From Ignavibacteriota bacterium (GTDB taxonomy: Bacteria; Bacteroidota; Ignavibacteria; UBA10030; CAVZMI01), in the NCBI GenBank assembly GCA_963776275.1, contig CAVZMI010000006.1:102453-166452 (forward strand): DNA of 64,000 nucleotides. The letters are read 5' to 3'. Positions 40,324 through 56,807 of this stretch are shown in pieces. The notes below the pieces were generated by a model, which searched no databases, was not told the DNA's origin, and worked only from the letters and a program-made list of their open reading frames with translations. Made by a program: the position numbers and the translations under genes. Positions within the stretch are counted from its first letter, which is position 1; every line of letters begins with the position of its first letter.

Positions 40324-42300
40324 TTATGGACTCCTCTTTTGAACGGCCGCACCCTGGTTGAGAAACCGCACAAATTCTTCCGGATTGCGGGTCAGTCCGG
40401 GGAATCGTGCGACCTCCCGATCGTCGGGCGAGAGGATTACATAGAATGGAAGAGCGATCGTTCCGAACCGGTTTTGCTCGAATAACCGGTTTCTGTCATA
40501 TTCGCTCCCGCTGCCGTCGGTATAGAGACGCACAAGAATAAATTTCTTCAGCTGTGCTTGTACGTCATCGCGCAAAAATATATTTGCTTCCATCCACCGG
40601 CAATTCGTGCAGGCAAAGCCCGTGAAATTGACAAAGATGTTTTTTCCTTCTGTCTTCGCTCTTTTCAATCCATCCTGATAATTCGAAATCCATTGCTCTT
40701 CCTCCACTGCAGTTCCGGATCCATTTAGTTTCCCGATCCACCCCGCAATATGACTATAACTCCGCGGTGGAAGGAACGCATCGAGCTCGCCCAGCGGTGC
40801 ACCAATGAGTCCTGTGAAAAGGAAAAATACCGCTGCTAGGAAGAAAACCGACCACAGCATTCTGACAACCCCTATTTTCTCCACCGGTGCATCATGTGAG
40901 AAAGAGAAACGTCCCATGAGGTAGAGCACCGTCATTATTGCAATAGCGATCCACAAAGAGAGAAACACTTCACGATTCAAGATGCCTGACTGCAAGACGA
41001 GATCGACGTTGCTGAGAAATTTCAGAGCAGCCGCCAGCTCGAGAAATCCCATGACGACCTTCACTGCATTCAACCATCCTCCGCTCTTTGGAAGGCGGAC
41101 GAGAAACGACGGAAATAATGCGAGCAGGAAAAAGGGCAGTGCGAATGTAACCGAAAATGCAAGCATACCGATAATCGGCCACATCCACTCTCCCTGTGCA
41201 GCAGTTACCATCACCGTTCCAACAAACGGCACCGTGCATGTGAAGGAGGTAATGGTAAATGTCAGCCCCATCAATAATACACCGGCCATGCTGTTAGTGT
41301 TCGAGTATTTAGTAAGTTTTGTCAACAGAGATGACGGCAGAATTATTTCGAAGGCACCGAAAAGATTGACGGCAAATGCAATGAATATACCCGCAATTGC
41401 CAGATTCACCCACGGATTCGCGGCAAATTGATTTAAGCCCGATGCACCGATTGTCAGTGCAAGAGCAAAGCCCAGCGCCGTGAATGTAAAAATGATGCCC
41501 ATGCTGTAGACAAGCGCATCGGCAATTCCCTTATTCCGTTTCCCCTCCCTGCGTTTTGTAAAGTACGAAACCGTAATTGGAATCATCGGGAAAACGCACG
41601 GTGTAAGAAGCGATAATGCTCCGAGCGACATCGCGAGCGTAAGATAATTCCATAAACCTTTTGCCTTTGCCTTAGCGACGATATCTGCGGGATCGATGCT
41701 GTATGTTTTGGGTTGGACGGCATCCGGGATAAATCTCGACGAATCTGGTGCGCCGTTTGACTGGCGGAGTTCCGGTATCTGAGATCCCGCCGCCCGTGTA
41801 ATTGATTCCTTTGACGATTGTTTTGCTTTTATGACTGTAACGGGAACTTCAATTATTTTCGTCACCGGCGGCAGGCAGACGGTATTACTGCACACCATGT
41901 ACCGCGCTTTGAGAATAATTTTCTGATTCCCATGCGGTGTATTGGCTGCGATCTTTACGGGCACTTCGAAAATTACATTACCGGAAAAATATTCCGTATT
42001 TATTCCAAACGATTCGTCATATGAAATTGTCGGGACAGGTTGTTTCGGCTGACCGGCAAGTGAAAAGAACGACTCTTCACTCATGCTGATCGATGTCGGA
42101 ATCGGTCCGCCCTCGGGCTGTGTGAGCGAGTAGATATGCCATATATTACCGATTCGCGCGCGGACCGTGACCATGACAATCGAACCGGCGGACACTTGTT
42201 TCTCTTTCACAGAACCAGACCAGCGCACGGGGTCCTGTGCACAGAGTTGTGAAGTCAGGATTACGAACAGCAAAAAAAAGAATCGTCGCATAGATTTCAT
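40324..42300 (-). CDS. dsbD: Protein-disulfide reductase DsbD family
   Basis: N-domain CSNTVCLPP, TM domain LLTPCVFPMIP and SFTCTVP, thioredoxin CTNC. Confidence 0.92.
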   Translation of the reverse strand: MKSMRRFFFLLFVILTSQLCAQDPVRWSGSVKEKQVSAGSIVMVTVRARIGNIWHIYSLTQPEGGPIPTSISMSEESFFSLAGQPKQPVPTISYDESFGINTEYFSGNVIFEVPVKIAANTPHGNQKIILKARYMVCSNTVCLPPVTKIIEVPVTVIKAKQSSKESITRAAGSQIPELRQSNGAPDSSRFIPDAVQPKTYSIDPADIVAKAKAKGLWNYLTLAMSLGALSLLTPCVFPMIPITVSYFTKRREGKRNKGIADALVYSMGIIFTFTALGFALALTIGASGLNQFAANPWVNLAIAGIFIAFAVNLFGAFEIILPSSLLTKLTKYSNTNSMAGVLLMGLTFTITSFTCTVPFVGTVMVTAAQGEWMWPIIGMLAFSVTFALPFFLLALFPSFLVRLPKSGGWLNAVKVVMGFLELAAALKFLSNVDLVLQSGILNREVFLSLWIAIAIMTVLYLMGRFSFSHDAPVEKIGVVRMLWSVFFLAAVFFLFTGLIGAPLGELDAFLPPRSYSHIAGWIGKLNGSGTAVEEEQWISNYQDGLKRAKTEGKNIFVNFTGFACTNCRWMEANIFLRDDVQAQLKKFILVRLYTDGSGSEYDRNRLFEQNRFGTIALPFYVILSPDDREVARFPGLTRNPEEFVRFLNQGAAVQKRSP

Positions 42301-42310
42301 CGTCGATAGT

Positions 42311-42769
42311 TTACGTCAATTCACACACTGTTGCTCCGGCAGCTTTTATCAGATCATTTGGATCGAGCAGAACCTGTATTCCCCTCATCCCTGCACTGAC
42401 ACTTATGAACGAGTGGAGCAGTGCGCTTTGATCGATAAACACCGGATATTTCTTTTTCCCACCGAGGGGCGTGCAGCCGCCGCGGAGATAACCTGTTAGC
42501 CTGAACACATCGTCCACATCGACAAGTTCCACTTTCTTGTCACGGGTGAGGCGTGCGAGTGTTTTCAAGCTGAGTTCATGGGTTCCGGGAATACACACTT
42601 CCATGATGCCGTTCCGGTCGCCGCGTACTACAAGCGTCTTAAAAACCTGTGCGAGCGGAATTTGAAGCTTTTCGGCTGCCTCTTCTGCCGAAAGAAGTTC
42701 TTCTTTAAATTCTCTTATATCGTAATGGATCGAAAGTGAGTCGAGTATTTGAGCGGCGCGTGTTTTCAT
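42311..42769 (-). CDS. ybaK: Cys-tRNA(Pro) deacylase YbaK
   Basis: MKTRAA, VFKTLV, TGYLRGGCTPLG, SAGMRG. Confidence 0.92.
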   Translation of the reverse strand: MKTRAAQILDSLSIHYDIREFKEELLSAEEAAEKLQIPLAQVFKTLVVRGDRNGIMEVCIPGTHELSLKTLARLTRDKKVELVDVDDVFRLTGYLRGGCTPLGGKKKYPVFIDQSALLHSFISVSAGMRGIQVLLDPNDLIKAAGATVCELT

Positions 42770-42811
42770 GATGCTACTCAAAGGTACGAAAAAGGATCAT
42801 GAAAGGAAATG
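42733..42811 (+). repeat. 79-bp direct repeat, copy 1 (ybaK 5' end plus upstream)
   Basis: 73/79 identical to 44611-44689 by hand alignment. Confidence 0.9.
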
Positions 42812-43013
42812 CCGTTCTCATGCCCGATCAATCCGCTTATTTGTCTGTTTTTCTTTCATCAAGGCGCGAAAAACGAAATCATTTGTTTCATGAGAAGCGG
42901 CACGGAGGTTCGGAGTGAGTACTATCTTGCGCCTCTTCTACTAAGTTTTAATTGCTTGTTAGTGATGAAGACCATCGTCAGCATTACCTGGTCTTATGAT
43001 GCTGAAACAAGCG

Positions 43014-43107
43014 GTATAACGGCGGAGTCGAGCGGAGTCCGCGTAATGCAGGAGCGCTGAAGGCGCGACGGAGTGAAGCGGGCTTCCACTCCAACGATTT
43101 GTTATCT
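43014..43107 (-). mobile_element. attC site (canonical)
   Basis: Minus strand AGATAAC-AAATC-GTTGGAGTGGA...TCCGCTCGAC-TCCGCC-GTTATAC imperfect palindrome overlapping the cassette gene stop. Confidence 0.85.
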
Positions 43108-43780
43108 ACTGTGAACTCATTTTTCGTTCAGCAATTTTTTTCATTTGTTGCTCTTGAGTACCAGTTCCCGAAATGTTTGAAGTGGCCGTCTGAATTGCAT
43201 CTTTGGCGTATTCCAAGAGTGCTACCCCTCCGGTACCTTGGAGGCTTGCTTCCTTGCCCGCCCATTGCAAATAATCTTCATATTCCCTGAGTTCATTTAT
43301 GTTTGAGATATACCCAGCCTCTTTGATAATCGCTTTTGGTGGATTCTCTTTGCTGAATTCAAGTTTCTTTCGTTTGACAGGCTTGAAACTATTTGACTTC
43401 TCATATTGTAAACGGAGATTACGTATGTTTCCCACTTCGCGGTCAACTTCTAACTTTAAAATCTGTGCCTGACGGATTTTTTCTTGGGCTATTTTGACGT
43501 TTTTATCGGCAATGGCTTTTACTTCCGTAAAAATTATTTTGATAGCATCCTGAAAGTCGGGTTTGCTCCTTTTTTCTTTTTCCACAAAGGTTTCCCAAAC
43601 TTTAAGGATTTGGGCCTCCGGTTTTTTATCCCAGATCATCCGTGCGATCTCCTTCAGCTTCTCTTGCTGTAATGAGCTAAAATTTCCGGCAGAAAGAGAC
43701 TGGGCCTGAAGTGGGAGTAATAAGGTCATCAATACTACAATTGATCCCGATAACAGGGCATAGAAAAACAATTTCTTCAT
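43106..43780 (-). CDS. Cassette-borne hypothetical exported, helical protein
   Basis: AAAGGAG RBS, signal peptide MKKLFFYALL...LQA/Q; bounded by GTTATCAC and an attC. Confidence 0.75.
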   Translation of the reverse strand: MKKLFFYALLSGSIVVLMTLLLPLQAQSLSAGNFSSLQQEKLKEIARMIWDKKPEAQILKVWETFVEKEKRSKPDFQDAIKIIFTEVKAIADKNVKIAQEKIRQAQILKLEVDREVGNIRNLRLQYEKSNSFKPVKRKKLEFSKENPPKAIIKEAGYISNINELREYEDYLQWAGKEASLQGTGGVALLEYAKDAIQTATSNISGTGTQEQQMKKIAERKMSSQ

Positions 43781-43802
43781 TTTTCTGTGTCTCCTTTCAA
43801 TG

Positions 43803-43869
43803 TGATAACAATAATTAGACTGATCCGTATAAGATACGGAGTTCTGGTTTTGTGACCATTCAACACGCC
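43803..43869 (-). mobile_element. attI-like module, copy a
   Basis: 51/60 identical to 52023-52082; ends CTAATTATT-GTT at the cassette start. Confidence 0.65.
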
Positions 43870-43945
43870 GCCTAACGAAAGAATTCAGCCGTGTTGTGGG
43901 TGTGGTTTGTGCACCCGCAATGTCGGCTGGAATGTCACGTTCGAT
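43870..43945 (-). mobile_element. attC site (canonical)
   Basis: Minus strand ATCGAAC...TTCCAGCCGAC...CGGCTGAA-TTCTTTC-GTTAGGC; the R'' ACATCGAAC is complementary to the cassette start GTTCGATGT at 44477. Confidence 0.85.
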
Positions 43946-43949
43946 GTTT

Positions 43950-44450
43950 TTAGTCACCCGAACACCCTTCAAAATATATTTCTTTTGGAATATCTTTTTC
44001 ATAAACAATCAAATACACTGCCTGAAACCGTATAATATTCAAAGTTTCCGATAGACATCCATGTTTTGATTCAACATCCCCGTGAGAAGGTTTAATTGTA
44101 CCATAGATCTTTTGAATAATATCCCTGGGTGCAGGATAGGCTATGCCAATATTCGGTTCCGTGCTAATCCTTTCAATATCTATAATGGTGTGAGTCCCTG
44201 CTTCGGCAAATGCTTCCCGCAAATCATCAATGGATTTTATTGGGCCGAATTCTCTTAGCACCTGTTCATCGAGTGTTTTTAACATGTCAGCAGATGCTTT
44301 TAACTGCGGGAATTGTTTCAAGAGTTCCGGAGTGAATTGGCTGGCAGGCCCATACTTACCACTTTCTAAAACTTTTTGTTGCAACTCTTGCAATGCTTTT
44401 TCAATGTTTTCTTGATATGGTGTAAAATAATCCCAACCGGTTGCTCCCAT
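43950..44450 (-). CDS. Cassette-borne hypothetical protein
   Basis: GGGAGG RBS, 166 aa ORF exactly between GTTCGAT and an attC. Confidence 0.8.
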   Translation of the reverse strand: MGATGWDYFTPYQENIEKALQELQQKVLESGKYGPASQFTPELLKQFPQLKASADMLKTLDEQVLREFGPIKSIDDLREAFAEAGTHTIIDIERISTEPNIGIAYPAPRDIIQKIYGTIKPSHGDVESKHGCLSETLNIIRFQAVYLIVYEKDIPKEIYFEGCSGD

Positions 44451-44470
44451 TTTACCTCCCTATTTGTGAC

Positions 44471-44536
44471 ATCGAACTATAATTAGATTGATCCGCATAA
44501 GATGCGAGGTGATTGCTTTTGCCAGTATAACATGCC
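44471..44536 (-). mobile_element. attI-like module, copy b (head of array 1)
   Basis: AAC-TATAATTAGATTGATCCGCATAAGATGCG shared with copies a and c; distal half more diverged. Confidence 0.65.
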
Positions 44537-44610
44537 CTCGGCATAACACGACCGCATAAATGATTTCAAAGATCGTCTACCGGACTGTGAACGCCCGCCG
44601 GTTCACGGTT

Positions 44611-44689
44611 AAAGTAAGTCGAGTATTTGAGCGGCACGGGTATTCATGATGCTGCTCAAAGGTACGAAAAAGGATCGTGAAAGGAAATG
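44611..44689 (+). repeat. 79-bp direct repeat, copy 2 (orphan ybaK 5' fragment)
   Basis: Encodes MNTRAAQILDLL on the minus strand versus MKTRAAQILDSL in ybaK. Confidence 0.9.
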
Positions 44690-44902
44690 AAAACCAGATA
44701 CTTGGCCGTTCTGAGAAAAATAGGTGCATATACTCTGTGGCAAAGAATGAAGGGTGCTCATGTTCAGATTATACCGGATGAGACGGGTTGACTGTTCTGG
44801 TTTGATTGGGAACGATAAGCTAACGCTTTTTTGTTCTTATAAGTAGCGCTTGATCACTTTTTCGGAATGAACAGACAATATTCAAAATGAGAAGTAAAAA
44901 AA

Positions 44903-44931
44903 TTGACTTTAACAGCCTTTTTTCGTAAATT
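44903..44931 (+). promoter_or_regulatory. Putative rplU promoter
   Basis: TTGACT, 17 nt, TAAATT. Confidence 0.55.
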
Positions 44932-44979
44932 TATTGACTTTTAATTATAGATACCACGCTTACTTAGGAGGAATTCAGG

Positions 44980-45288
44980 ATGTACGCCGTTGTAGAGATA
45001 GCAGGACACCAGTACAAAGTAACCCCGTCGAGTAAATGCTTCGTTCCGAAACTTGAAGGTGAAGCAGGGACAAAAGTGGAATTCGATAAGGTGTTACTGT
45101 TGGCTGACGAGAATAATATTAAAGTCGGTGCGCCGATTGTTGATGGTGTGAAGGTCGAAGCGACCGTTCTTGGCCATGTTAAAGACGATAAAGTCATCGT
45201 TTTCAAAAAGAAACGGCGGAAAGGTTACCGGGTAAAACGGGGTCATCGTCAGCAGTACACAGAAATTGAAATAACAAATATCGGATAG
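44980..45288 (+). CDS. rplU: 50S ribosomal protein L21
   Basis: MYAVVEIAGHQYKV, FKKKRRKGY, GHRQ. Confidence 0.98.
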   Translation: MYAVVEIAGHQYKVTPSSKCFVPKLEGEAGTKVEFDKVLLLADENNIKVGAPIVDGVKVEATVLGHVKDDKVIVFKKKRRKGYRVKRGHRQQYTEIEITNIG

Positions 45289-45335
45289 TAAATCCCGATT
45301 CGCGATATGCTCGGGAGATGTAAGGAGAAAAAGTC

Positions 45336-45587
45336 ATGGCTCATAAAAAAGGCGCCGGCAGCTCACGAAACGGCCGCGAGAGCAACGCTCAACGACTCGG
45401 CGTCAAGGCATTTGGCGGTCAGCGGGTAACCGCCGGAAGTATTATTATCAGACAGCGGGGTACAAAATTTGCTCCCGGAGTAAATGTCGGTATAGGCAGT
45501 GACGACACGCTTTTTGCGTTAGTCGATGGTGTTGTGAAGTTCGAGCAGCACAGTAAAACGAAAAAGACCGTCAGCGTATCCGCATAA
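45336..45587 (+). CDS. rpmA: 50S ribosomal protein L27
   Basis: [16 protein letters not shown]. Confidence 0.99.
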
Positions 45588-45634
45588 GTTCTTTCAATAT
45601 TTTTTACAACGTTCCGTTTCGAGGGACTTGATAG

Positions 45635-45835
<201 letters not shown>

Positions 45836-45857
45836 TTTTTTTACTTGCTATTAATGA

Positions 45858-45894
45858 CTCCGTGTACCATTCAGTTCGGGATACGGAGTTTTTT
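45858..45894 (+). terminator. Intrinsic terminator after rplU-rpmA-mdh'
   Basis: ACTCCGTGT...ATACGGAGT stem followed by a T run. Confidence 0.65.
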
Positions 45895-46000
45895 ATGAAA
45901 AAAAAGTTGATCAGATATATTTTCCCCCATCGACTCATCCCGACAATCCCACTGAGAAACGTGGGATGTAAGAAACACGAGAACGTCGGGATTCGCTCGA

Positions 46001-46125
46001 CGACCCGCTCCGCCGAGCGTCCGCCTCGGCGAGCCGAAGGCGAGACGGGGAGCGAGGCGAGCCTGTCCGTCGGAATCCGTCGAAGGCGGATGGAGGCGGA
46101 AGTCGTCCTTTAGGGCAGGGTAAAT
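46001..46125. repeat. Composite REP-like element
   Basis: 46001-46061 matches 10433-10493 (inverted); 46062-46104 matches 49856-49898 (38/43). Confidence 0.8.
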
Positions 46126-46166
46126 TTTTTAATTTTTCCTTTTTAATTTTTCCTTATCTTTTGGTT

Positions 46167-46937
46167 ATGATACTTCCACTAGCCATCGAAACTGCCAAAC
46201 AAGCCGGCATTTTCCTTAAAGCCAACATCGGCAATATTACTACCATCGAACAGAAATCATCCGAAATCAATCTCGTAACGGATATCGATAAACGTTCGGA
46301 AGCGATGATCATCGGCGCGATTAAAAAGCAATTCCCCACTCATGATATCGTCGCAGAGGAGAGCGGGAGAAGCGCAGGAACGTCAGACTACCGCTGGATT
46401 GTTGATCCGCTTGACGGCACGACAAACTATATGCACGGCCTACCGATGTTCTGTGTTTCAATCGGTATCGAACATAAGGGAGAAATAATTGCAGGCGTCA
46501 TCTACGATCCAATGCACGATGAGCTCTTCACCGCCGAAAAGGGAAGCGGTGCATTTCTAAATGGAAAGAAAATACGGGTTTCAGCCGAAGATCGTTTGAT
46601 TCGCAGTCTTCTCATCACCGGTTTTCCCTACGATGTTAAAAATAATCCCTTCAATGCCATTGAACATTTCAATAACTTTGTTATCGAAGCTCAGGCAATA
46701 CGCCGGCTCGGTTCAGCAGCGATCGATCTGGCATATGTGGCATGCGGCCGTGCCGAAGGTTTCTGGGAAGTGCAGCTTCATCCATGGGATATAGCAGCGG
46801 GAGTAATCATCATTCGTGAAGCGGGCGGCACGGTGACAAATTTCGAAGGAAAACCGATGAACGCCTATACTCCAAACATCGTGGCAAGCAACGGGAAGAT
46901 CCATGACGAGATATTGCGAGTGCTTTCAAAGTGCTGA
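46167..46937 (+). CDS. suhB: Inositol monophosphatase family protein
   Basis: WIVDPLDGTTNY, RRLGSAAIDL, PWDIAAG. Confidence 0.93.
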   Translation: MILPLAIETAKQAGIFLKANIGNITTIEQKSSEINLVTDIDKRSEAMIIGAIKKQFPTHDIVAEESGRSAGTSDYRWIVDPLDGTTNYMHGLPMFCVSIGIEHKGEIIAGVIYDPMHDELFTAEKGSGAFLNGKKIRVSAEDRLIRSLLITGFPYDVKNNPFNAIEHFNNFVIEAQAIRRLGSAAIDLAYVACGRAEGFWEVQLHPWDIAAGVIIIREAGGTVTNFEGKPMNAYTPNIVASNGKIHDEILRVLSKC

Positions 46938-46974
46938 GAGATTGCCGAATGAGTATTGTGGATTGCGAAATACG

Positions 46975-47023
46975 GAATTTTCGCGCGGCCGAAGGCCAAA
47001 TCGCCTGCAGTCGCGGGTTAGCT
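46975..47023 (-). mobile_element. Truncated terminal attC (left half only)
   Basis: Minus strand AGCTAAC-CCGCG-ACTGCAGGCGA 17 nt after the cassette stop; no matching right arm. Confidence 0.5.
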
Positions 47024-47040
47024 GGTATAATACTAGATTA

Positions 47041-47448
47041 CTATCGATTGTGAAATGAAGTGCGTACAGTTGCTAACCGTTTGCGATGATCGCAATACGG
47101 TCGAGCGTAGGTAGCAAAATCTGTGGTTGACAGCTTATCGATTAGATTTGGTACTCCATCCCAGACAGACTGCGCTTTTTCCAAATTAACACAAGATTCA
47201 ATTGGACATTCAGCACAACTACCGAATCCTTTGGATCGGCAGCAACGTCGCGCTTTGCAATTACGGCTTGTGTGAAATACTTCATCGTCTGGCCCGAGAC
47301 AACCATTGCATGAAATATGCTCGACCGTCTCATTCAGTTCATAGATTCTATACCATGCCTCAATTGTCCTCTTCTGATGCGCAATTCCTTTCGTCACCCC
47401 AAGATATGCCGGGCACTCCGAACAAAGCACTCCACATGCAGACATCAT
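47041..47448 (-). CDS. Cassette-borne DUF3795-like Cys-rich protein
   Basis: ACGVLCSECPAY, CNGC, C.ARRCC, CAECP..SC. Confidence 0.8.
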   Translation of the reverse strand: MMSACGVLCSECPAYLGVTKGIAHQKRTIEAWYRIYELNETVEHISCNGCLGPDDEVFHTSRNCKARRCCRSKGFGSCAECPIESCVNLEKAQSVWDGVPNLIDKLSTTDFATYARPYCDHRKRLATVRTSFHNR

Positions 47449-47494
47449 ATTGACCTCTATTCCATTGCCAATGGAAATTTCTATAGTTGGTGCC

Positions 47495-47606
47495 GCCTAA
47501 TGGATGGCGGCTCCGCCTACGTAAATAACACTCCGGCACTTGACCGCTGGAGTTTGCTTTGTAACGCAGGCGGGCTCATTCCGCTAGCTTGAGCACCTAG
47601 TCAGGT
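47495..47606 (-). mobile_element. Degenerate attC (A)
   Basis: Minus strand ACCTGAC-TAGGT-GCTCAAGC...CCATCC-ATTAGGC; shares ~45 bp with sites B and C. Confidence 0.7.
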
Positions 47607-47621
47607 TGCCCAAATCATTTT

Positions 47622-48134
47622 TTATGGTAGTTCCTTTAACTCATCAGAGATGGGCGGTTTTGTATCAAAGTACTCATCCATTTCTTTTTCATTCAAGTTG
47701 ACTTGTCTTATTTCTTTGTACTCCTTTTTCTCAAATGAATAATAGTGGACTGTCGCTTCACAACATCCTAGTTTCCAGTAAGTCTCAATTAATGGAAACC
47801 CATTTTCTTTCTTTTTGAGAATGTACACTATTATGCCTTCAACTGTACCGATTTCTTTATTTGTTTTACCATCGATAATAATCCAGGGACAGCCGCCTGA
47901 TCCACAGTTTACTTCGTCGCTCTCGAACTTTTCTGGTATTTTGTCTCCATTCAAGTCGATTGAAATTGTATATGTAATCGTTTCAGATTCTGCTGGAGGA
48001 CTTTGAATGGTGTCAATTTTCGCCGATTGAGAAGTAAAGAATATTTTATAAGGTGAATTAGTTTGAGCAAAGCAAATGCTTATGCCAAAGAAAAACACAA
48101 AACCGAATTGGATTATTTTCATAATTATCCTCAT
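47622..48134 (-). CDS. Cassette-borne hypothetical exported protein
   Basis: Signal peptide, DLNGDKIPE and CGSGGC; flanked by the inverted pair GGTTGCCCAAATC / GATTGGGCAACC. Confidence 0.75.
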   Translation of the reverse strand: MRIIMKIIQFGFVFFFGISICFAQTNSPYKIFFTSQSAKIDTIQSPPAESETITYTISIDLNGDKIPEKFESDEVNCGSGGCPWIIIDGKTNKEIGTVEGIIVYILKKKENGFPLIETYWKLGCCEATVHYYSFEKKEYKEIRQVNLNEKEMDEYFDTKPPISDELKELP

Positions 48135-48147
48135 AGAAGATTGGGCA

Positions 48148-48455
48148 ACCTCACGGATGGCGGCTCCGTCTACGTAAATATCACTCCGGCGCTTGTCCCT
48201 ACGGGTCGTAGACCGCCGGCCTGTCCCTGCCTGCTCGCCGACGCCCGAAGGGCTTAGGCGAGCCTACGTGCCGGAGGCCTTCGCCCGCCGAAGGCTTCAG
48301 CGAAGGCGGGCACTCCGGCAGGCAGGCGCCGTAGTGAAACGAAAGCGGAAGTTTGCTTTTCGACGTAGGCCTGCCTGCGTGCCTCCGGTAGGCAGGCGGG
48401 CTCATTCCGTTAACTTGCTTGCCCCGAATACTCTTCGGGGATGCGCTGGTTAGGC
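48148..48455 (-). mobile_element. Degenerate attC (B) expanded by nested palindromic insertions
   Basis: GCCTAAC-CAGCGCAT[insert]CAAGTTAACGG...CCATCC-GTGAGGT; collinear with site A apart from the insertions. Confidence 0.7.
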
Positions 48456-48503
48456 GGCCGATTATTTATTTGTTTTCGAATCTTCAAAATTTTTTTTCTC
48501 ATT

Positions 48504-49778
48504 TTAAAAATTACCCATTCTTTTAATAATGGTATTTATAAATAGATAAAGGATATAGATGTCAACCATAACAACCATTATAAAGACAATTCTAGGTAGC
48601 CAATGCCCTAAAGGTTTCTTATAAAGAACTCTCAGAGGGCCGAACTCACAAATGAGCCAGAAACCATAGCTGGTTAAAAATGTTAATAAACCCGGTGTAT
48701 GTCTAAAATTAGACGCTGCTTCGATAGTTCCCTTGATATCCGGCAATATGGAGTAAATTAAGTAAATTGAATATGAAAAAATTATTACACCGCCTACACA
48801 CAGAAGCCGACGGTTCGTAGACTCTGACATTTTAGACAATGTATTTAAGGGCCATCCGATAAAAAGAATGAACGATGATATCCCTTGAATTATGAGGTAT
48901 CTGTTATCGATTGCATCAGCAAACCCTTGAACGTGCATTACTATACCCATCACAACTGCAAATAGCCCAAAAGCACCAATCCATGCATTCACACCTAAAT
49001 ATGTAATTAATGGAGCGACTGCAACATCCTTTTTGCCTATAATGTGGAAGAATATTAATTTATTCAAAGGATATACTTTATCTTCTTTTGTTTCCATACT
49101 TTTCTGTACATAATCACTTTCTTTCTGTACTTCTTCAATTGTTTCTCCCGCCAAGTATTTTTCTAATATTTTCTGAATTCTACGGATGTCTTGTTCCGGA
49201 TATGTTGAAATAATTTCTAACTTCCCTTTATCATGTATAAGTAATAGCTTTTTATTTTCTTGGCTCATTGTTCCCTGCAAAGAAGTATTTTGCCATTTTA
49301 TTCTTTGTACTTTTTGTTTTGGCACTGCCAACTTTATCTTTGGTTTGAATCCGAAAAAACTATCTTGAATTACAATTTGGTATGTATCCAAGATTATTGA
49401 ACGTATTGTAAATATCGGCATAATTAATAATTTATAAACGATACACGGTGGGATAAGAAAGAATAGTAATAGAAAATACATGGGACCACGCATATTACCA
49501 AGCTCTCCGTTTCCTCGAAGTAATTCAAATAATACTCGAAAGAAACCTAATGCAATAGGAAGAATACCAAAACCAATTATAAGAAACAATGCGGTAATCC
49601 AGTTACGCCAGTTATTCTTTATGGCATTTGAAGGCACCCAAAAATATTGTATGTGTAATGTATCATGTAAATTATTGTATAAGACCTTTCGAGGAGATTT
49701 TAGATACGCATGAATTCTTGAAAAAATTGAACCCTTCCTTAATTCATTGTATCCATCTGAAGGACAAGTAATAATCAT
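48504..49778 (-). CDS. Cassette-borne hypothetical multi-pass membrane protein
   Basis: 424 aa, AT-rich, ~7 hydrophobic segments, AAGGA RBS just after site C. Confidence 0.75.
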   Translation of the reverse strand: MIITCPSDGYNELRKGSIFSRIHAYLKSPRKVLYNNLHDTLHIQYFWVPSNAIKNNWRNWITALFLIIGFGILPIALGFFRVLFELLRGNGELGNMRGPMYFLLLFFLIPPCIVYKLLIMPIFTIRSIILDTYQIVIQDSFFGFKPKIKLAVPKQKVQRIKWQNTSLQGTMSQENKKLLLIHDKGKLEIISTYPEQDIRRIQKILEKYLAGETIEEVQKESDYVQKSMETKEDKVYPLNKLIFFHIIGKKDVAVAPLITYLGVNAWIGAFGLFAVVMGIVMHVQGFADAIDNRYLIIQGISSFILFIGWPLNTLSKMSESTNRRLLCVGGVIIFSYSIYLIYSILPDIKGTIEAASNFRHTPGLLTFLTSYGFWLICEFGPLRVLYKKPLGHWLPRIVFIMVVMVDIYILYLFINTIIKRMGNF

Positions 49779-49799
49779 AATATATTCCTTATTTATATT

Positions 49800-49981
49800 G
49801 CTTCACGGATGGCGGCTCCGCCTACGTAAATATCACTCCGGCGCTTAACCGCCGACCTGTCCGTCGGAATACACCGGCGGCGGATGGAGGCGGAAGTCTG
49901 TTTCTCAAGACGCAGTCGGGTCAGCTTGTTGAACGTTTTTTGTGAAACCCCGTGTTTTTTACGGGGAGCGCATGGTTAGGG
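49800..49981 (-). mobile_element. Degenerate attC (C) with palindromic insertions
   Basis: CCCTAAC-CATGCGCT[insert]CAAGCTGAC...CCATCC-GTGAAGC; GTGTGCGCCCTAAC complements the cassette start GTTAGGGTGCACAC at 52022. Confidence 0.75.
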
Positions 49982-50019
49982 CGCACACTATTAGTGCGAT
50001 TGTTTTTTTATCAATATGT

Positions 50020-51986
50020 TCATTTTATTTTTAGTAATTCTGAATATGGCACTACACTCTTGAGCAACCCTCCATTCCAGGCACCAATATATATATTAGA
50101 ATCCGGGCCCAATGATAAAAAATTAATGTAAGTCTCGTTTGGTAATCCTGTCTCAAGCTTAGTCCAATTATTTCCAAGATTTACAGATATATATATAAGA
50201 TTATCTTCAGTCGCAACCATAATTGTATTTGAATCACAAATAGCAACCGCAGTGATTTCTTTATTCTTAAAACCTAATTGTTGCCAATTCTTCCCATGAT
50301 CTGTTGACCGAAGTACTCCTGATTCATCGGTACCTAATAGTAGTGTACCTTTTCCATTAATTGCAAAACATTCAACTCCTTTCTCTTTTGGACATAACGC
50401 TTTCCATGTCCGACAACTGTCCGTAGACTGTTGAATAGTTCCCAATCGTCGATCACCGGAATGTAAATCTCCGCTTATAGGTTCGAAGTCAACGATTATA
50501 CAATAGAATGAATTTGTCGACATGTCATAGTGCAATTTTTCTGCACGGTACCATTTATTAGAGAGGGGAATCAACTTATTATCATTTGAAAGTCTATGAA
50601 CGCCTTCATCCAAACAACCGACATATATATTTTCCATCGAATCTATTGCAAGAGATATTGCATCAATATTCCCAAATCCTGAACCTCCTTGATTCAGACA
50701 ATTCCAATGCTCACCTTTGTCAGTTGATCGAAAAATATATCCAGTCCAAGTTACGGCGTATATTCCTTTGCGGTGTCCAATTATAATAGATGTTATATCC
50801 ATATCTTCTAAATATACACTGACATTATTCCAAGTCAGACCAGCGTCTAATGAGCGGTATATACCGAAACTTGAGGTACCAACATAGATACATTCCTTTG
50901 AATCAAAAACGATGGATTTCACGTAAGCCGGTGACCATCCGGTAGTTAATTGTACCCATTGATTGGTAACCCGATTTAGCCGCAAAACACCTCGACCAGA
51001 TGTGCCAATAATGATGTTACTATCAGGCTCAAATGCAACAGATTTAATATAGGTGTTCGGTAATCCTAAGCTCGAAAAACTATTGCCATAATCAAAAGAT
51101 TCAAGGAGTCCACTATTATTGCTACATACAAACAAATGTCCCCTGCCAAGGTCTATTAAAATCTCATTTAGATGTGCTTTTTCTCCGATAGACCAATTGG
51201 CTCCACGATCTTTTGATCGATAAATATTACCATCTCCCATAATGACAACGAAATCGCCATTATCTAAGGCATTAATCACCTGGGCTACATAAGGATACTG
51301 AGCTCCAATATCGCTCCATACACGACCATCATCATTTGAAATCAAAATCCTTTTCTTATCTGTTATAATAAAAGCTTGTTCGTTTTGTCCAAATCCCATG
51401 TTGTATAATTTGCCAACATTTTTTGGAAGTTTAACTGTAGTCCATGTTTTTCCACAATCACCAGTATGATAGATATCCCCATTCTTATACTGAACAATTA
51501 ACGAACCATGCTCAGATAAAAATATGTTCTCCCAAATAGAGTCTGCTCCTCTTTGAATATTTTTCCAGGAATTACCATCATCTATCGAAAATAGACAGTG
51601 AGCAGGAAATGTTCCCAATTTTGCTATTATGCTTCCATTAGTATTACACCTGAGTGCTGCAATTCTCCATGGTGTATTTAGCGATCTGGTCCAAGTGACC
51701 CCATAGTCTTTAGAAATAAAAATACCATTAATATTTGTACCAGCTAGTATATATCCATTTTTGATGACCAAAACAGATAAAATATCATCAGAAAATCTGA
51801 ACTGTTGAGATTTCGCCAGAGAGGTTTACTTCTTTCTTTTGACGAATCCACTGAAACATTCGAAGTGATATTTTTTGAATTGTTTTCATTTTCTTGCTTT
51901 TTATTGGATCGACATCCAATTGGATAAAGTATAAAATATAGAATTATTAGATTACCAAATATTTTTAGTGTGAATTTTATGGGCAT
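50020..51986 (-). CDS. Cassette-borne BNR/Asp-box beta-propeller lipoprotein; frameshift at homopolymer ~51792-51795
   Basis: Lipobox-like PIGC in 51744..51986; S.D.G.TW repeats in 50020..51771; one extra A joins them (SDFSDDILSVLVIK). Confidence 0.8.
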
Positions 51987-52015
51987 AATATTTCTTTATA
52001 GAATATTTGTGTGCA

Positions 52016-52082
52016 CCCTAACTATAATTAGATTGACCCACATAAGATGCGGAGTTCTGGTTTTGTGCCCATATAACACGCC
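52016..52082 (-). mobile_element. attI-like module, copy c (head of array 2)
   Basis: Ends CTAATTATA-GTTAGGG at the first cassette; 85% identical to copy a. Confidence 0.65.
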
Positions 52083-52145
52083 ATAGTATTTCTCCCTGCT
52101 TCCTAATTACAATTCTGAATGGACGGAAATCCTTTAGTATAAACT

Positions 52146-52174
52146 TGTAGGACGATTTGACAAATCGTCCTACA
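52146..52174. repeat. Perfect palindrome, GTAG-type REP-like or rmuC terminator
   Basis: TGTAGGACGATTTG-A-CAAATCGTCCTACA. Confidence 0.7.
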
Positions 52175-52179
52175 TTGTT

Positions 52180-53364
52180 TCACTTCGAATTCTCTAATTG
52201 CTGCCGCTGATCCTCAGGCAGCGCCTGCGATGTCACAAGCTTCAGCTTATCGTCCAGCATATCGAGCTTCCGTGCCGATTCATCGTATTTGTTTTTTGCA
52301 TTTGTCAGATGTCTGCCTACGGTTTCAAAATCCTCCGCAAACCGCTGAAGATCGTTTTGGAGGCGTGAGAGGTTCTGTATAATTTCTTTTGCGCTTTTTT
52401 CGATCTGAAGCCCTTTAAACCCAAGCGAAACAACCTGCAGCTGTGTGTAGAATGTATTTGGGGAAACCGGGAATACCCGGCGTTCATAGGCATATTCATA
52501 AAGACTGTTATCGTCGCCATATACCTCGTTTTTAATGATGGTCTCGTAATAAATATTTTCCGCCGGGATATACATCAACGCAAAATCGAATGTTCCCTCG
52601 TCGGGAAGAATATATTTCTGAGCAATGGCATCGATATGCTTTTTGACGTCATTGATGAAAGTCCGATAGGCCGTCCTTTTCTCGGCATCGGTGTGCGCCT
52701 CTATCATCTTACGGAAATTCTCGAACGGGAATTTCGCATCGATGGGGATGATACCGTTTGGTGTACGGATAATGGCATCGACAGTCTGTCCGTTCCGGAA
52801 CCGGTATTGGGTCGCGTACGATGATGCAGGAATCACCTGCTTTAGAAGTTCTTCGAGCATCAGCTCACCCAATCCGCCTCGCAATTTTGGCGCCTGGAGC
52901 ATTTCTTCGAGTTTCGAAACATTCTGTCCGAGTTCCTTGATTTCCTGTGTCGCTTTTCCTAATTCTCCGAGGTTTTTCTGGACTTCGCCGATCACTTTTG
53001 CCGCACTATCAAGACGGTTGCCAACCTGTCCCGTGGCTTCCTGCACCTGCCGTGTCACACCGGCAAGCTGATTATTAATCATCTCGTTCGCCTTCTGCAT
53101 CTGTTGGACAACGGAAGCAATCTGTTGATTAACACTGTCCGTTGTATTCTTAAGATTTGTCGAAACAGTATCCGCAGTATTCTTCATGCTGCCTGTCATT
53201 TCTCCACGGAGAGCTTCAACCTGCTGTTGAACCAACAGTGCTATTTGAGCCGATTGATCGGACGGCTGTTGTGTCGGCATCGACGGCAGACGCTTCAGGA
53301 TAAGCCATAGAATAACGATGAGTATAATAAACAGAAATCCGACAATAATAAATGTGGCATCCAT
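52180..53364 (-). CDS. rmuC: DNA recombination protein RmuC
   Basis: RGGLGE..LE, PIDAKFP, KYI.P..GT.DFA.MYIPAE, VSPNT. Confidence 0.93.
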   Translation of the reverse strand: MDATFIIVGFLFIILIVILWLILKRLPSMPTQQPSDQSAQIALLVQQQVEALRGEMTGSMKNTADTVSTNLKNTTDSVNQQIASVVQQMQKANEMINNQLAGVTRQVQEATGQVGNRLDSAAKVIGEVQKNLGELGKATQEIKELGQNVSKLEEMLQAPKLRGGLGELMLEELLKQVIPASSYATQYRFRNGQTVDAIIRTPNGIIPIDAKFPFENFRKMIEAHTDAEKRTAYRTFINDVKKHIDAIAQKYILPDEGTFDFALMYIPAENIYYETIIKNEVYGDDNSLYEYAYERRVFPVSPNTFYTQLQVVSLGFKGLQIEKSAKEIIQNLSRLQNDLQRFAEDFETVGRHLTNAKNKYDESARKLDMLDDKLKLVTSQALPEDQRQQLENSK

Positions 53365-53447
53365 AGAACGGTAGTATAAATGTTTTTATGAGTGGCGCGT
53401 GTGGAAGAATATACACAGATGTTAAGGAAAGGTCAATTGGAGAGCCC

Positions 53448-53476
53448 TTGACAATAGAAATTCACTTCTGTACATT
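53448..53476 (+). promoter_or_regulatory. Putative sigma70 promoter
   Basis: TTGACA, 17 nt, TACATT. Confidence 0.55.
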
Positions 53477-53524
53477 GATTTCATTAGAACAATATCTTTC
53501 ATATACTTATTACCGGAGATTTCT

Positions 53525-54298
53525 ATGCGTGCAATACTAAATCATGTTACGGTCATTCTTGTAATATTTCTCATAACCGCGGCTATGGGATGCAAGAAAG
53601 AATCGTCGCCAACGGAGACACCGGCAACAATCACCGGCGATCTTTTCCCAATTATTGAAGGCCATATCTATGTCTATAATGAATACGAGACCAATGCACA
53701 AGGTACTAAAATTCCTGGAACCGATTACAGGATTGCGACAAAGGTGGGATCTTCAGTAACGATTGCAGGAAAGTCCGGCAATATTTTAGTCGACAGCATT
53801 TATACAACGAACGGACAATTTTTCAAACTCGACACGCTGATCACGGCTCGAAAAGGAACTGATGGGACAATTTACTTCACACTTCCGCAAAATATGTTTC
53901 AAGATTTTCCGGTCTCGCTCTCGCTGCCTTTAATATGGCTCCCCTTTTTCCAGCCTTCGGCCGGTGTGGGCACAAGTTACGATATCTATTCGCTGGACAC
54001 AACGGTAACGTATCAGTATACGCCTGATCTATCGATTCCCGTTCGAATACAATTAACGCTCTCCGGCGTTATCAATCAAAAAGAAAATGTCAATGTTCCT
54101 GCCGGGTCTTACTCGGCCTATCGCGGTGAACTTAATTATAATCTTATTGCCACCTCAGGAATGTTTACCAGTTCACAAAATGGTAATATCCTCACCATGT
54201 GGCTTTATGAAAATGTAGGTCCGGTGAAAATTGCATGGACTCCGATGGGATCGGACACGACCGGTACGGCCCGGGAATTAGTAAGTAAGAATTTTTAA
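53525..54298 (+). CDS. Hypothetical lipoprotein
   Basis: Lipobox AMGC-KK; E.V.VPAG.Y and W..ENVGPVK pattern. Confidence 0.75.
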   Translation: MRAILNHVTVILVIFLITAAMGCKKESSPTETPATITGDLFPIIEGHIYVYNEYETNAQGTKIPGTDYRIATKVGSSVTIAGKSGNILVDSIYTTNGQFFKLDTLITARKGTDGTIYFTLPQNMFQDFPVSLSLPLIWLPFFQPSAGVGTSYDIYSLDTTVTYQYTPDLSIPVRIQLTLSGVINQKENVNVPAGSYSAYRGELNYNLIATSGMFTSSQNGNILTMWLYENVGPVKIAWTPMGSDTTGTARELVSKNF

Positions 54299-54441
54299 GA
54301 GTACACAATAATGCCGGGTTACCAAATTTACGATGAAGTTGCCGAACGACCGAACCATTATGAGACGAGGCAACCTATTAAAAAATTATAGCAGAGATAT
54401 CAGGGAGGTTCAGTACAAAGGGCGGACGATAGTGTCTGCCT

Positions 54442-54867
54442 TTATTTTTTGTAGAAGTGCATAGTCATAATCACTTCGGTTCCATTCTTATGTTTCACAA
54501 AATCCACGGTATCCATCAATGTCCGCATCAGGAATATACCACGCCCGTGTTCATTGAGCAGGTTCTTTTCATCCAGCGGGCTCGGGATATTTACCGGATT
54601 GAAACCCTTTCCTTCATCGCGTACCCGGCATTCAAGCGCATCGGCGTTCACATGACAAACAACCGAGATTTTCTTTTCCGGATTCGATTTATTTCCGTGA
54701 AAAATGCCGTTATTCACAGCTTCTGTAACTGCAACGAGAAGTTTATGAAAATGGACTTCGTCAAGGTGGGTGTACATATTAACTTTATGAAGAAACCTTT
54801 CGACCCTTCGGATATTTCTTGGACTGCTTCCCAGACTCAAGCGAAATATTTTACCATTTTTTTTCAT
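54442..54867 (-). CDS. Anti-sigma factor-like ATP-binding protein (RsbW/HATPase_c)
   Basis: EAVNNGIFHGN, VRDEGKGF, GRGIFLMR.LMD. Confidence 0.9.
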   Translation of the reverse strand: MKKNGKIFRLSLGSSPRNIRRVERFLHKVNMYTHLDEVHFHKLLVAVTEAVNNGIFHGNKSNPEKKISVVCHVNADALECRVRDEGKGFNPVNIPSPLDEKNLLNEHGRGIFLMRTLMDTVDFVKHKNGTEVIMTMHFYKK

Positions 54868-56807
54868 AATGTAAATGTGACTCGCATTGTCAGATTTGAA
54901 TACGTCAGTGTCGTAACATCGGTCTGGTACTGTATCTCATACCATCCATTCAACGACAGCATTCCAGTACGACTGAACATCCAGTCGATCATGCAGGTGG
55001 GTCCAATATTAAGAATCGAGCTTTCAAGCTCCCTGGCGTCCCCTTGCGCGTTATACCGTTTCTGACTAAACATACGTATGCCTGCGGCAAAAGTGACACC
55101 CGATGCGCTGTACCGCATCTGCGTGAAGAGCGACCGTTCTGAAAAATAATTGGCCGGCCGTTCTTTAAACTCTTTCCAGAATAATTGTCCCCTTTCGTAG
55201 AATTTCCACAACACCACACCATCGATCCATATTCGTTGCGTAACCTGTATCGCCGTCGAATCCAGCCAGCTGAATTGTCTGAATGAATAACTTTTGACCG
55301 ATTTCACTTCTTCCTCGAAGTCGTACACAGTGTAATTTGCCAGCACTTCGAAAACATTTGTCGTATGAAACCACGATGCCGGTGAATAGTAGATTCTGGG
55401 TGCCAGGCGGATAATCCGGTTCCAATTATTATTCGCGCTTCGTTGAGAAAGCAGATATACCATATGATTAAGGACCACATCCGCATTCACCCGGACACGC
55501 AAGGATGGGCTCCATACCCGTTCTTCAGCGATGCCCGCCACAATTAAAAGTTCATCGCGGTCGTCCACATTTTCGAGACTCGGCGTGTCGTATTGAAGCA
55601 GGATTGTCGAAAACGACGTTTCAATCCGGTCGGAACCCGATAGGGGAAATGATGCACTTCCTGCAAGCGAAATTTTCCGTGAACTATTATCTTTTTTCTC
55701 CTCCTCCCGGCGGCGCATATCATAAAAATTCTTCTCTACCGACTCGATATTCTCGGCGGTATGGCGCTCATCACGCTCGGCATAGGTCAAGCGCATCATC
55801 GCATTCGAATTTTGATTAGTATACAAAAATTGAAGAAGTGTTTCAAGGCGAAATTCTCCGACATCGGCATCGAAAATACTGCTTGAGGGAAAGAGAAAAT
55901 TTTTATAGAGCGTCACGCGACTGACAAGACGATTGGAAATATCGGTCCCGAACGTCAAAGCCGAGACATCGCTGAAGTGATATGTCAGTTCCTCGCTTAC
56001 AGCAAAAATATTTTCTCGTCTACTATCGATATTGGATGTAACATTATATTGAAGTTGGGTAAGCGTATCGGCATTGAAATAAAAATCACGCCGATTCTGG
56101 AGAAATTGAAAATGGAGCTTATTCCACGCCTGATCAGAAAAAACTTTCGTAATCACGAGCGAGGCGAGGTTGCTTGTTCCTTTTCGAGGAGATATATCGT
56201 CACCGGAATATTTTCCCAGGAAATTCATCCGATACCCCGAAAGGTCAAGATCGGATATGCGCCCGTTCACCTGATAACTGAAACCCTGATTATTAATTCC
56301 AAGCTGGTTGTCATATCTGACTCCCAGCATAGGTGTAATTTCGACAAGATCATAAGGATGAAGCTCAACCCCGCCGAGGAGCTGATGGGATGACACTTCG
56401 CTGATACCGAGATTTCGATTGTCGGACAGGACAATGGAAGATACAAGCAGCCGTGCACCAAATGTTGAACTAAGTTTCTGGGTGAAGAGTGCGTTAAGTG
56501 ATTGTTCATCCTTGACGAATTTCTGAGTTGCGATTATTGTCGAAGAGCGGTATAGATCGTTCACATCCAGGGAAAAATCACCATATTTTTTTTGAAGCGC
56601 CAGACGACCCGTCCAGAGATATGTATTCAGGTTCCGTTCAAATCCAAAGAGCGATTGATTGCGAATTGCCATTAGGGAATCGGCAGGCTGCTCTTCGAAA
56701 CGCGTGGGTGAAGTCTGCTGAGCCATGCCGGTCGTCACGCACAGCATTATTCCCGTAATATTCACAAACAGACGGTTCATACCCTTTATGGTGATTTCAC
56801 CATTCAA
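54864..56807 (-). CDS. Hypothetical exported protein, probable outer-membrane beta-barrel (start may be 56780)
   Basis: Signal peptide, amphipathic beta pattern, ends MRVTFTL. Confidence 0.65.
   Translation of the reverse strand: MNGEITIKGMNRLFVNITGIMLCVTTGMAQQTSPTRFEEQPADSLMAIRNQSLFGFERNLNTYLWTGRLALQKKYGDFSLDVNDLYRSSTIIATQKFVKDEQSLNALFTQKLSSTFGARLLVSSIVLSDNRNLGISEVSSHQLLGGVELHPYDLVEITPMLGVRYDNQLGINNQGFSYQVNGRISDLDLSGYRMNFLGKYSGDDISPRKGTSNLASLVITKVFSDQAWNKLHFQFLQNRRDFYFNADTLTQLQYNVTSNIDSRRENIFAVSEELTYHFSDVSALTFGTDISNRLVSRVTLYKNFLFPSSSIFDADVGEFRLETLLQFLYTNQNSNAMMRLTYAERDERHTAENIESVEKNFYDMRRREEEKKDNSSRKISLAGSASFPLSGSDRIETSFSTILLQYDTPSLENVDDRDELLIVAGIAEERVWSPSLRVRVNADVVLNHMVYLLSQRSANNNWNRIIRLAPRIYYSPASWFHTTNVFEVLANYTVYDFEEEVKSVKSYSFRQFSWLDSTAIQVTQRIWIDGVVLWKFYERGQLFWKEFKERPANYFSERSLFTQMRYSASGVTFAAGIRMFSQKRYNAQGDARELESSILNIGPTCMIDWMFSRTGMLSLNGWYEIQYQTDVTTLTYSNLTMRVTFTL

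Follow-up and report, generated by a model that had tools for sequence, protein, structure and literature searches.

The DNA considered here is a stretch of 64,000 nucleotides (the window), positions 102453-166452 of contig C6 in the metagenome-assembled genome (MAG) of an Ignavibacteriota bacterium (G000; 38 contigs, 96.4% complete, 5.3% contamination). Between positions 43014 and 52092, the window carries two arrays of integron cassettes, each headed by a copy of a module of approximately 65 bp that is probably the attachment site (attI) of the integron. Neither array has an integrase gene nearby. In what follows, we summarize the structure of the arrays and compare them with three other genomes: a congener (G001, 99% complete), a member of the same family (G002), and a member of another family of the same order (G052). 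We then discuss why both arrays are probably the remains of chromosomal integrons that have lost their integrase gene (intI).

The features of the two arrays and of the block between them are listed below with their coordinates in the window and their strand; attI and attC stand for predicted sites. The E values refer to two profiles: a module profile made from 11 module copies, for which E<=1e-3 was taken as significant, and a reciprocal profile made from 28 intI-linked loci of other phyla only and then run on the whole of G000.

52020-52092, minus: attI copy at the head of array 2 (crossover GTT 52020-52022; module profile E 1.1e-20 genome-wide; reciprocal profile 52011-52092, E 8.2e-14)
49806-52021, minus: cassette 2.1, BNR/Sortilin-type beta-propeller gene in split open reading frames (51744-51986 and 50020-51771); attC 49800-49981 (182 nucleotides), R' GTGAAGC
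48154-49805, minus: cassette 2.2, protein of 424 amino acids (open reading frame 48504-49778), no family match; attC 48148-48455 (308 nucleotides) with nested GC-rich repeats, R' GTGAGGT
47501-48153, minus: cassette 2.3, protein of 170 amino acids (open reading frame 47622-48134); attC 47495-47606 (112 nucleotides), R' ATTAGGC
46975-47500, minus: cassette 2.4, DUF3795 protein (open reading frame 47041-47448; PF12675, E 1.4e-13); R'' 47016-47022
44980-46937, plus: housekeeping block between the arrays, assigned with Pfam: rplU (L21), rpmA (L27), a 57-codon mdh stump with GC-rich repeats, and suhB (inositol monophosphatase)
44567-44643, minus: intI stump, the last ~16-25 codons, ending in PAGVHSPVDDL and a stop codon
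44475-44566, minus: shortened intI-attI spacer and attI of array 1 (attI ~44478-44543; crossover GTT 44475-44477; module profile E 7.7e-21)
43876-44476, minus: cassette 1.A, protein of 166 amino acids (open reading frame 43950-44450), no Pfam or NCBIfam match; canonical 76-nucleotide attC 43870-43945
43807-43875, minus: internal attI copy (crossover GTT 43807-43809; module profile E 1.1e-18; reciprocal profile 43805-43875, E 3.1e-9)
43014-43808, minus: cassette 1.B, secreted-looking protein of 224 amino acids (open reading frame 43106-43780), no Pfam or NCBIfam match; 94-nucleotide attC 43014-43107

Beyond the arrays lie rmuC on one side and, on the opposite side, genes for DsbD and a YbaK-type editing protein. 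Array 2 begins about 60 nucleotides past the terminator hairpin of rmuC (52146-52174), with no intI stump at that place, and terminates against the 3' end of suhB. Its last attC is truncated, retaining R'' (47016-47022) without a recognisable R'. In array 1, the internal attI copy stands directly behind the R' of cassette 1.A (GTTAGGC, 43870-43876). The three module copies make up one repeat family (43806-43869; 44474-44537, 61% to the reference; 52019-52082, 86%). On the minus strand, every copy closes with TCTAATTATW, followed by GTT and then by a minus-strand gene, and the GTT is intact in all three. This is the arrangement proposed in the initial annotation, whose limits for the three copies were right to within a few bases. 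Its count of two and four cassette genes on either side of housekeeping genes was likewise correct, apart from the splitting of the cassette 2.1 gene into two open reading frames, and its statement that the 64 kb encode no tyrosine recombinase agrees with the lack of any PF00589 (Phage_integrase) match in the window. The intI stump, the R' triplets of array 2, the truncated last attC and the mdh stump (45662-45835) were absent from that annotation.

The cassettes of the window appear to be genuine integron cassettes, in which the complementarity between the start of the cassette and its own R'' extends well past the 7-bp core. As had been noticed from the letters alone, the two sequences are complementary at 9/9 positions in cassette 1.A (GTTCGATGT / ACATCGAAC), at 13/14 in cassette 2.1 (GTTAGGGTGCACAC / GTGTGCGCCCTAAC), at 12/13 in cassette 2.3 (GTGAGGTTGCCCA / TGGGCAACCTGAC), and at 6/6 in cassette 1.B (GTTATC / GATAAC). 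The chance expectation of a 13-mer with at most one mismatch is ~0.003 in a search space of 4.4 kb (by arithmetic, not by shuffling). With the same tolerance, a 13-nucleotide complement was found in 9 of 18 attC-headed cassettes from G000, G001 and G052, and a 14-nucleotide complement in three of seven attI-headed ones. In cassette 2.3, the start (GTGAGG, 48148-48154) and the R'' (CCTGAC, 47600-47606) are both altered at the would-be pairing position, without compensation.

We identified the attC sites by our own criteria, not by the published attC model; a typical attC has the order R''-L''...L'-R', an extrahelical base and an R' of the form GTTRRRY. The site of cassette 1.A (43870-43945) has R'' ATCGAAC and R' GTTAGGC, and its bottom strand folds into a single bulged hairpin (-16.2 kcal/mol, z -3.24, 1/200 shuffles as good), with an R/L duplex matched by 11/200 shuffles. 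At the site of cassette 1.B (43014-43107), the R box, a spacer of 5-6 nucleotides and the L box pair at -21.2 kcal/mol (7/200 shuffles as good), and the R/L-box duplex of cassette 2.3 reaches -20.8 kcal/mol (13/200). Altogether, R/L-box pairing was better than in shuffles at 7 of the 11 attC sites tested. The attC sites of array 2 are long (112-308 nucleotides) and share a conserved 3' half, which is found at 14 sites on contigs C4, C6, C23, C25 and C30; the conserved 17 nucleotides after their R'' form the L'' box, which pairs with this 3' half. The R' triplets of the three complete attC sites in array 2 are GTG, GTG and ATT instead of GTT, which is present at all four sites in G001 and in 10 of the 14 attC sites of this conserved type (D1) genome-wide. 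By our attC criteria, then, array 1 has two attC sites and array 2 has three complete sites and a truncated one, each set on one strand and with no intI nearby. Clusters of at least two such sites lacking an integrase are known as CALINs, and the description of both arrays as integrase-less is borne out.

GC-rich mini-hairpins (for example, TCCCAC...GTGGGA) occur at 45900-46115, 48190-48440 and 49850-49960, and at 19 loci genome-wide. They are nested within the long attC sites and are also found in ordinary intergenic regions, and the attC lengths of orthologous cassettes vary through them.

What identifies the module? For this question, we used 80 IntI loci (539 kb in total) with close relatives (67-100% identity) of the IntI of G052 or G002, 69 of which have at least 250 nucleotides of room; the records are labelled Nitrospirota, Planctomycetota, Chlorobiaceae, NC10, Acidobacteriota, Desulfobacterota, Bacteroidota, Ignavibacteriota and others. 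The module profile matches 28 of the 80 intact intI loci (27 of the 69 with room). Its 30 significant matches all lie on the intI strand, with none on the other; 28 begin 101-150 nucleotides after the intI match, and the remaining two lie ~3 kb further on, preceded in each case by an intI stump (12 or 38 codons). In the opposite direction, the reciprocal profile recovers all three copies of the window genome-wide (array-1 attI at 44468-44538, E 1.7e-8, with profile positions 126-211 absent; the other two at the E values listed above), and also matches C20, C23, C30, C32 and a truncated copy on C27. The order of elements is seen most clearly in G052, where intI (485.9 bits) is followed by a spacer of ~110 nucleotides, a homologue of the module, GTT, and a cassette with its first 14 nucleotides perfectly complementary to its own R''. 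In G002, where the arrangement is alike but more divergent, the contig breaks off within it, past intI. Because of this fixed position after intact intI genes and the reciprocal homology, the module can be taken, on sequence grounds, as the attI of this integron type. The initial annotation had called it attI-like and had proposed to check whether copies abut an intI and whether copies elsewhere precede GTT and a cassette; the former is the case at the 28 loci, and the latter at several copies.

Alignment of the module copies reveals two direct repeats (~TTATRYGGRYC) and a TCTAAT-containing core up to GTT, after which the sequences diverge; between genomes, the divergence begins at GTTAG. The two repeats are putative accessory integrase-binding sites. 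As single strands, the modules fold no better than shuffles (z -1.43 and +0.80), which is compatible with an attI acting as a double-stranded site. A site ending at the G/TT crossover, as expected of a complete integron, is thus present by homology and position only. It should be mentioned that the profile is far more sensitive than a 29-nucleotide degenerate pattern, which found the module core in only 4 of the 101 genomes sampled from the order.

As for the integrase, array 1 at least was once a complete integron and has since decayed, given the intI stump beside its attI. A tblastn search with IntI residues 321-345 of G052 matches the stump at 48% identity over 25 residues (E 0.85, weak alone), and the intI-3'/spacer part of the reciprocal profile, which is independent of it, matches positions 44538-44613 at E 6.4e-10. 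The genome has four intI stumps (in the window and on C30, C27 and C32), so that a unit of stump plus attI recurs at three further loci, and the stump on C32 joins IntI residues 33-54 to residues 329-345. At least eight attI copies with an intact core are present in G000, located behind attC sites, half attC sites and intI stumps. Several dispersed copies had thus been rightly anticipated, and what did not hold is the idea that they are primary solo sites, since the attI of array 1 adjoins an intI stump and the stump-plus-attI unit is found at the three other loci.

On C32 (G000:C32:79602-80580; L156:1100-2080), a GC-rich open reading frame of 245 amino acids and an internally deleted intI lie between two attI copies, which belong to a distinct subtype. 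This stretch has no match in G001, and the integron relics on C27 and C32 have no syntenic copy there. Two MAG records, from Nitrospira and Chlorobiaceae (L082:7800-8040 and L083:8069-8360), have an intact intI-attI and a second attI ~3 kb downstream behind a stump of 12 or 38 codons, and the unit is therefore not peculiar to G000.

Searches for an intact integrase were made across the genomes. PF00589 has seven matches in G000, none within the window and the nearest ~65 kb before its start. No IntI exceeds the family cut-off (TIGR02249, 265 bits) in G000 or in G001, and tblastn finds stumps only; neither array, then, has beside it an IntI with the additional domain that characterizes complete integrons. 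G002 and G052 have one IntI each above the cut-off (~485 bits), as do 41 of the 101 genomes of the order. The best candidate in G000 is a recombinase of 311 amino acids (C23:235648-236583), which scores 237.7 bits with a match split at profile positions 181-234, the IntI-specific insert. Within 90 kb of it, there is no attI or D1 attC; short attC sites nearby were not searched for. In a second copy of this gene (C22:9512-10336), ~306 bp interrupt the coding sequence past codon 267, adjacent to the catalytic tyrosine; behind this broken copy lies a 1.15-kb repeat shared by four contigs. Three such IntI-like genes occur in G002. A further G002 recombinase (318 amino acids), 1.4 kb from a solo attI, was not taken as linked to it: it is 24% identical to the C23 protein, and two genes lie between.

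G002 has the same backbone in the same order (rmuC...suhB-mdh-rpmA-rplU...ybaK-dsbD), with a full-length mdh and neither module nor cassettes, which makes both arrays genus-specific insertions. Between G000 and G001, array 1 and its flanks (40337-45895) are 94.2% identical, with the same array content, and positions 52018-55000 are 91.5% identical. Between the GTTAG of the attI (52018) and the attC crossover near 47507, on the other hand, the 4.5 kb of G000 are replaced in G001 by three other cassettes, encoding a protein of 170 amino acids, a GNAT acetyltransferase and a beta-lactamase-fold protein of 542 amino acids. Two of these three have a perfect complement of 13-14 nucleotides between start and R''. 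The 542-amino-acid cassette is also present in G000, in the array on C30 (C30:4590-6340), at 93.5% amino acid and 94.6% nucleotide identity. Cassette 2.4 is shared by the two congeners at 92.9%, and cassette 2.1 is missing from the G001 array.

Two peat metagenome runs gave contigs matching small shares of the stretch (0.06 and 0.05), of which only the covered parts are informative. At 90-95% similarity, these contigs come from relatives and not from this strain. There, cassettes 2.2 (48448-49814) and 2.4 stand as separate units beside other neighbours; a separate contig of 650 nucleotides spans 47032-47507 of cassette 2.4. A contig of 33.7 kb retains the rmuC-attI junction, and its match ends at 52018. 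An rmuC-attI junction without intI is common to the congeners and is followed by different first cassettes, which points to site-specific events at an attI without an integrase of its own. We infer that an IntI encoded elsewhere once acted in trans at this rmuC-side attI. If the array had instead been exchanged as a whole, by homologous recombination with another strain, the trans event would only have taken place in that strain.

Taken together, we consider it probable (about 0.8) that both arrays derive by decay from chromosomal integrons with intI reading toward attI; this kind is known, and the number of attI sites is unusual. The original unit would have comprised intI transcribed toward attI and the cassettes, which would enter at the G/TT crossover of the attI. 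In this genus, the integrase gene would then have been deleted, leaving its last codons at array 1 and nothing upstream of the array-2 attI. At several loci, units of stump plus attI may have arisen by multiplication or may have remained from before. An IntI encoded elsewhere would have inserted and exchanged cassettes once the array-2 attI was without an integrase of its own, and the arrays seen today would be static, CALIN-like fossils. That they are static is most likely, because no intact IntI is detectable. Two further observations speak for a fossil rather than a working system: the mutated R' triplets of array 2, and the attI copies, which are no better conserved than their surroundings (240/270 positions, or 88.9%, identical between orthologous copies in G000 and G001, against 91.5-94.6% in flanks and cassettes).

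Several observations weigh against this interpretation. The whole-site fold of 43014-43107 is not distinctive (z -1.33), R/L-box pairing is no better than in shuffles at 4 of the 11 attC sites tested, and Rfam at its gathering thresholds has no match in the window (it may hold no attC family). Among the 80 close IntI loci, 52 have no module match at E<=1e-3, and in a separate set of 28 IntI loci drawn from the same order (most of these IntI being 51-59% identical to the G052 protein), none has the module downstream; these two results imply that the module belongs to one IntI clade and not to integrons generally. The sole IntI locus of the order sample with module matches (L138; G057:C2:58656-62597) has them on the opposite strand and upstream of intI, which is the classical divergent arrangement. 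Only four of the eight attI copies of G000 precede sequence with a complement at a cassette end, those on C20, C23 and C30 and the first copy on C32 having given none. Finally, G000 is a MAG in 38 contigs with the completeness and contamination given above, and because it is incomplete, an intI could be missing from the assembly.

This last point leads to the alternative favoured by the initial annotation, that the dispersed attI sites are the pads of a single distributed integron that works to this day, supplied in trans with an IntI that either lies on an unassembled or unbinned replicon or is the 311-amino-acid recombinase on C23. Much of the evidence described above is what such a system would also leave: at least eight attI copies, the GTT kept in all three copies of the window, an rmuC-attI junction continued by different first cassettes in G000, G001 and the metagenome contig, and one cassette shared by different arrays of two congeners. 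G002 and G052 each have an intact IntI together with a further attI-headed array elsewhere, the MAG is incomplete, and the family that the C23 recombinase matches best is integron integrase (237.7 bits). We nevertheless regard a system still at work as unlikely. No IntI exceeds the cut-off even in the 99%-complete G001, where, as in G000, tblastn finds stumps only; the C23 protein is without the IntI-specific insert and has no attI or D1 attC within 90 kb (short attC sites were not searched for); the three complete attC sites of array 2 have exchanged GTT for GTG, GTG and ATT; the attI orthologues are no more alike (88.9%) than flanks and cassettes (91.5-94.6%); and the content of array 1 is identical in both species. 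Service in trans by a remote IntI therefore stands as history, on the strength of the cassette turnover at the rmuC-side attI, and is not established as a system of today, no intact IntI having been found in G000 or G001.

A much less probable view is that the module is no recombination site at all, but a cassette-borne or intergenic repeat in front of genes, such as a promoter, a small RNA or the end of a miniature inverted-repeat transposable element. One copy does lie inside an array, directly behind an attC (43810-43875), and most copies contain a short palindrome (CCGYAT CTT ATRCGG). Such a repeat, however, would not be expected to follow intact intI at a constant position and on a constant strand, as the module does at 28 of 80 loci from different phyla, with divergence beginning exactly past GTT, and the module has neither a fold better than shuffles nor an Rfam match; a sigma-70 promoter scan found 22 where 24.5 were expected, with no excess in or near the modules. 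Least credible is growth of the arrays without attI through the non-classical genomic sites (attG) described by Loot and co-workers, a documented route that the available text of their work proposes as an origin of small CALINs (bioRxiv 10.1101/2022.09.11.507474) and that would suit small arrays in core-genome intergenic regions, because both arrays start not at an arbitrary GTT or another non-conserved site unlike attI but at a conserved ~65-bp site homologous to the one beside intact intI, and an intI stump adjoins array 1.

Beyond the decay of this locus, one may speculate that attI is a portable, multi-copy element in this IntI clade. Stump-plus-attI units would be seeded behind attC sites and at new loci, forming a network of landing pads filled and shuffled in trans by one resident or visiting integrase, and capture would continue in lineages with no integrase beside any array. 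We consider this doubtful at present, although somewhat less so than a system still at work in G000.

Two genes of the region are incomplete or split as read. The two overlapping open reading frames of cassette 2.1 encode 80 amino acids with a lipoprotein-like N-terminus and 583 amino acids of propeller repeats, and the gene is either a frameshifted pseudogene or the product of an assembly error. In the housekeeping block, mdh (malate dehydrogenase) is cut to a 57-codon N-terminal stump (45662-45835), followed by GC-rich repeats (45836-46160). The stretch is homologous in G001, and G002 has a full mdh of 307 amino acids at the same place; the sole other mdh match in G000 is a 30%-identical paralogue (C23:255048-255902).

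How does the locus compare with known systems? In the class 1 integrons, attI1 consists of two direct repeats upstream of a GTT-ending core, where cassettes enter, and has no attC-like hairpin. The module is of similar length and has the same architecture of direct repeats, GTT-ending core and no attC-like hairpin, the comparison being one of architecture. It differs in lying past the 3' end of intI rather than in the gap between intI and cassettes of divergent orientation, and its integrase binding is putative. The closest counterpart in gene order is the "inverted integron-integrase group" of the Treponema denticola type, in which, according to the available parts of the sources, intI is transcribed toward attI (PMC3607928, PMC4889954). 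As in that group, intI, attI and cassettes lie on one strand with attI just past the 3' end of intI in G052, in G002 and in 28 of the 80 loci, whereas the window holds the attI and cassette parts only.

Arrays left after the loss of intI are also described in the accessible portions of the literature, including integrons of Xanthomonas in which intI is inactivated, with CALINs located elsewhere, and remnants in Treponema phagedenis; Cury et al. (2016) found intI pseudogenes near 15 of 279 CALINs, and CALINs away from the resident intI can be mobilised in trans by a functional IntI (PMC4889954, PMC3607928, bioRxiv 10.1101/2025.06.18.660453). The present arrays agree with these portrayals in having attC sites without a working integrase nearby, in the lineage-specific loss of intI, and in being stable within and different between lineages. 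They differ in that each is headed by a recognisable attI, in a genome with at least eight copies, and in that intI is cut to stumps of 12-25 codons, with stump plus attI recurring. As far as the same sources go, an integron has one attI, and the attI is unknown for most integrons (PMC4889954, PMC3607928, bioRxiv 10.1101/2025.06.18.660453). The attG sites resemble the present ones in that cassettes lie in core chromosomal intergenic regions far from an integrase; according to what is available of the attG study, they vary and resemble attI in neither sequence nor structure (bioRxiv 10.1101/2022.09.11.507474), whereas the site here is a conserved attI homologue. A non-exhaustive search of the literature, in part of partial texts, did not turn up arrays that begin with additional attI copies, or an attI of ~65 bp that this clade shares across phyla.

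On present evidence, the locus itself is what integron decay ordinarily produces. Its interest lies in what the attI makes visible. Current integron finders are blind to attI outside classes 1-3, and arrays such as these are therefore recorded as nameless CALINs whose origin is unknown. Here, the attI of a widespread clade of environmental IntI is recognisable by its sequence, and a profile of it separates CALINs that are decayed integrons from landings at secondary sites. An attI without its integrase has probably exchanged cassettes, which bears on how long a "dead" integron stays a usable platform. Should attI units turn out to multiply actively, the dynamics of integrons would gain a further level.

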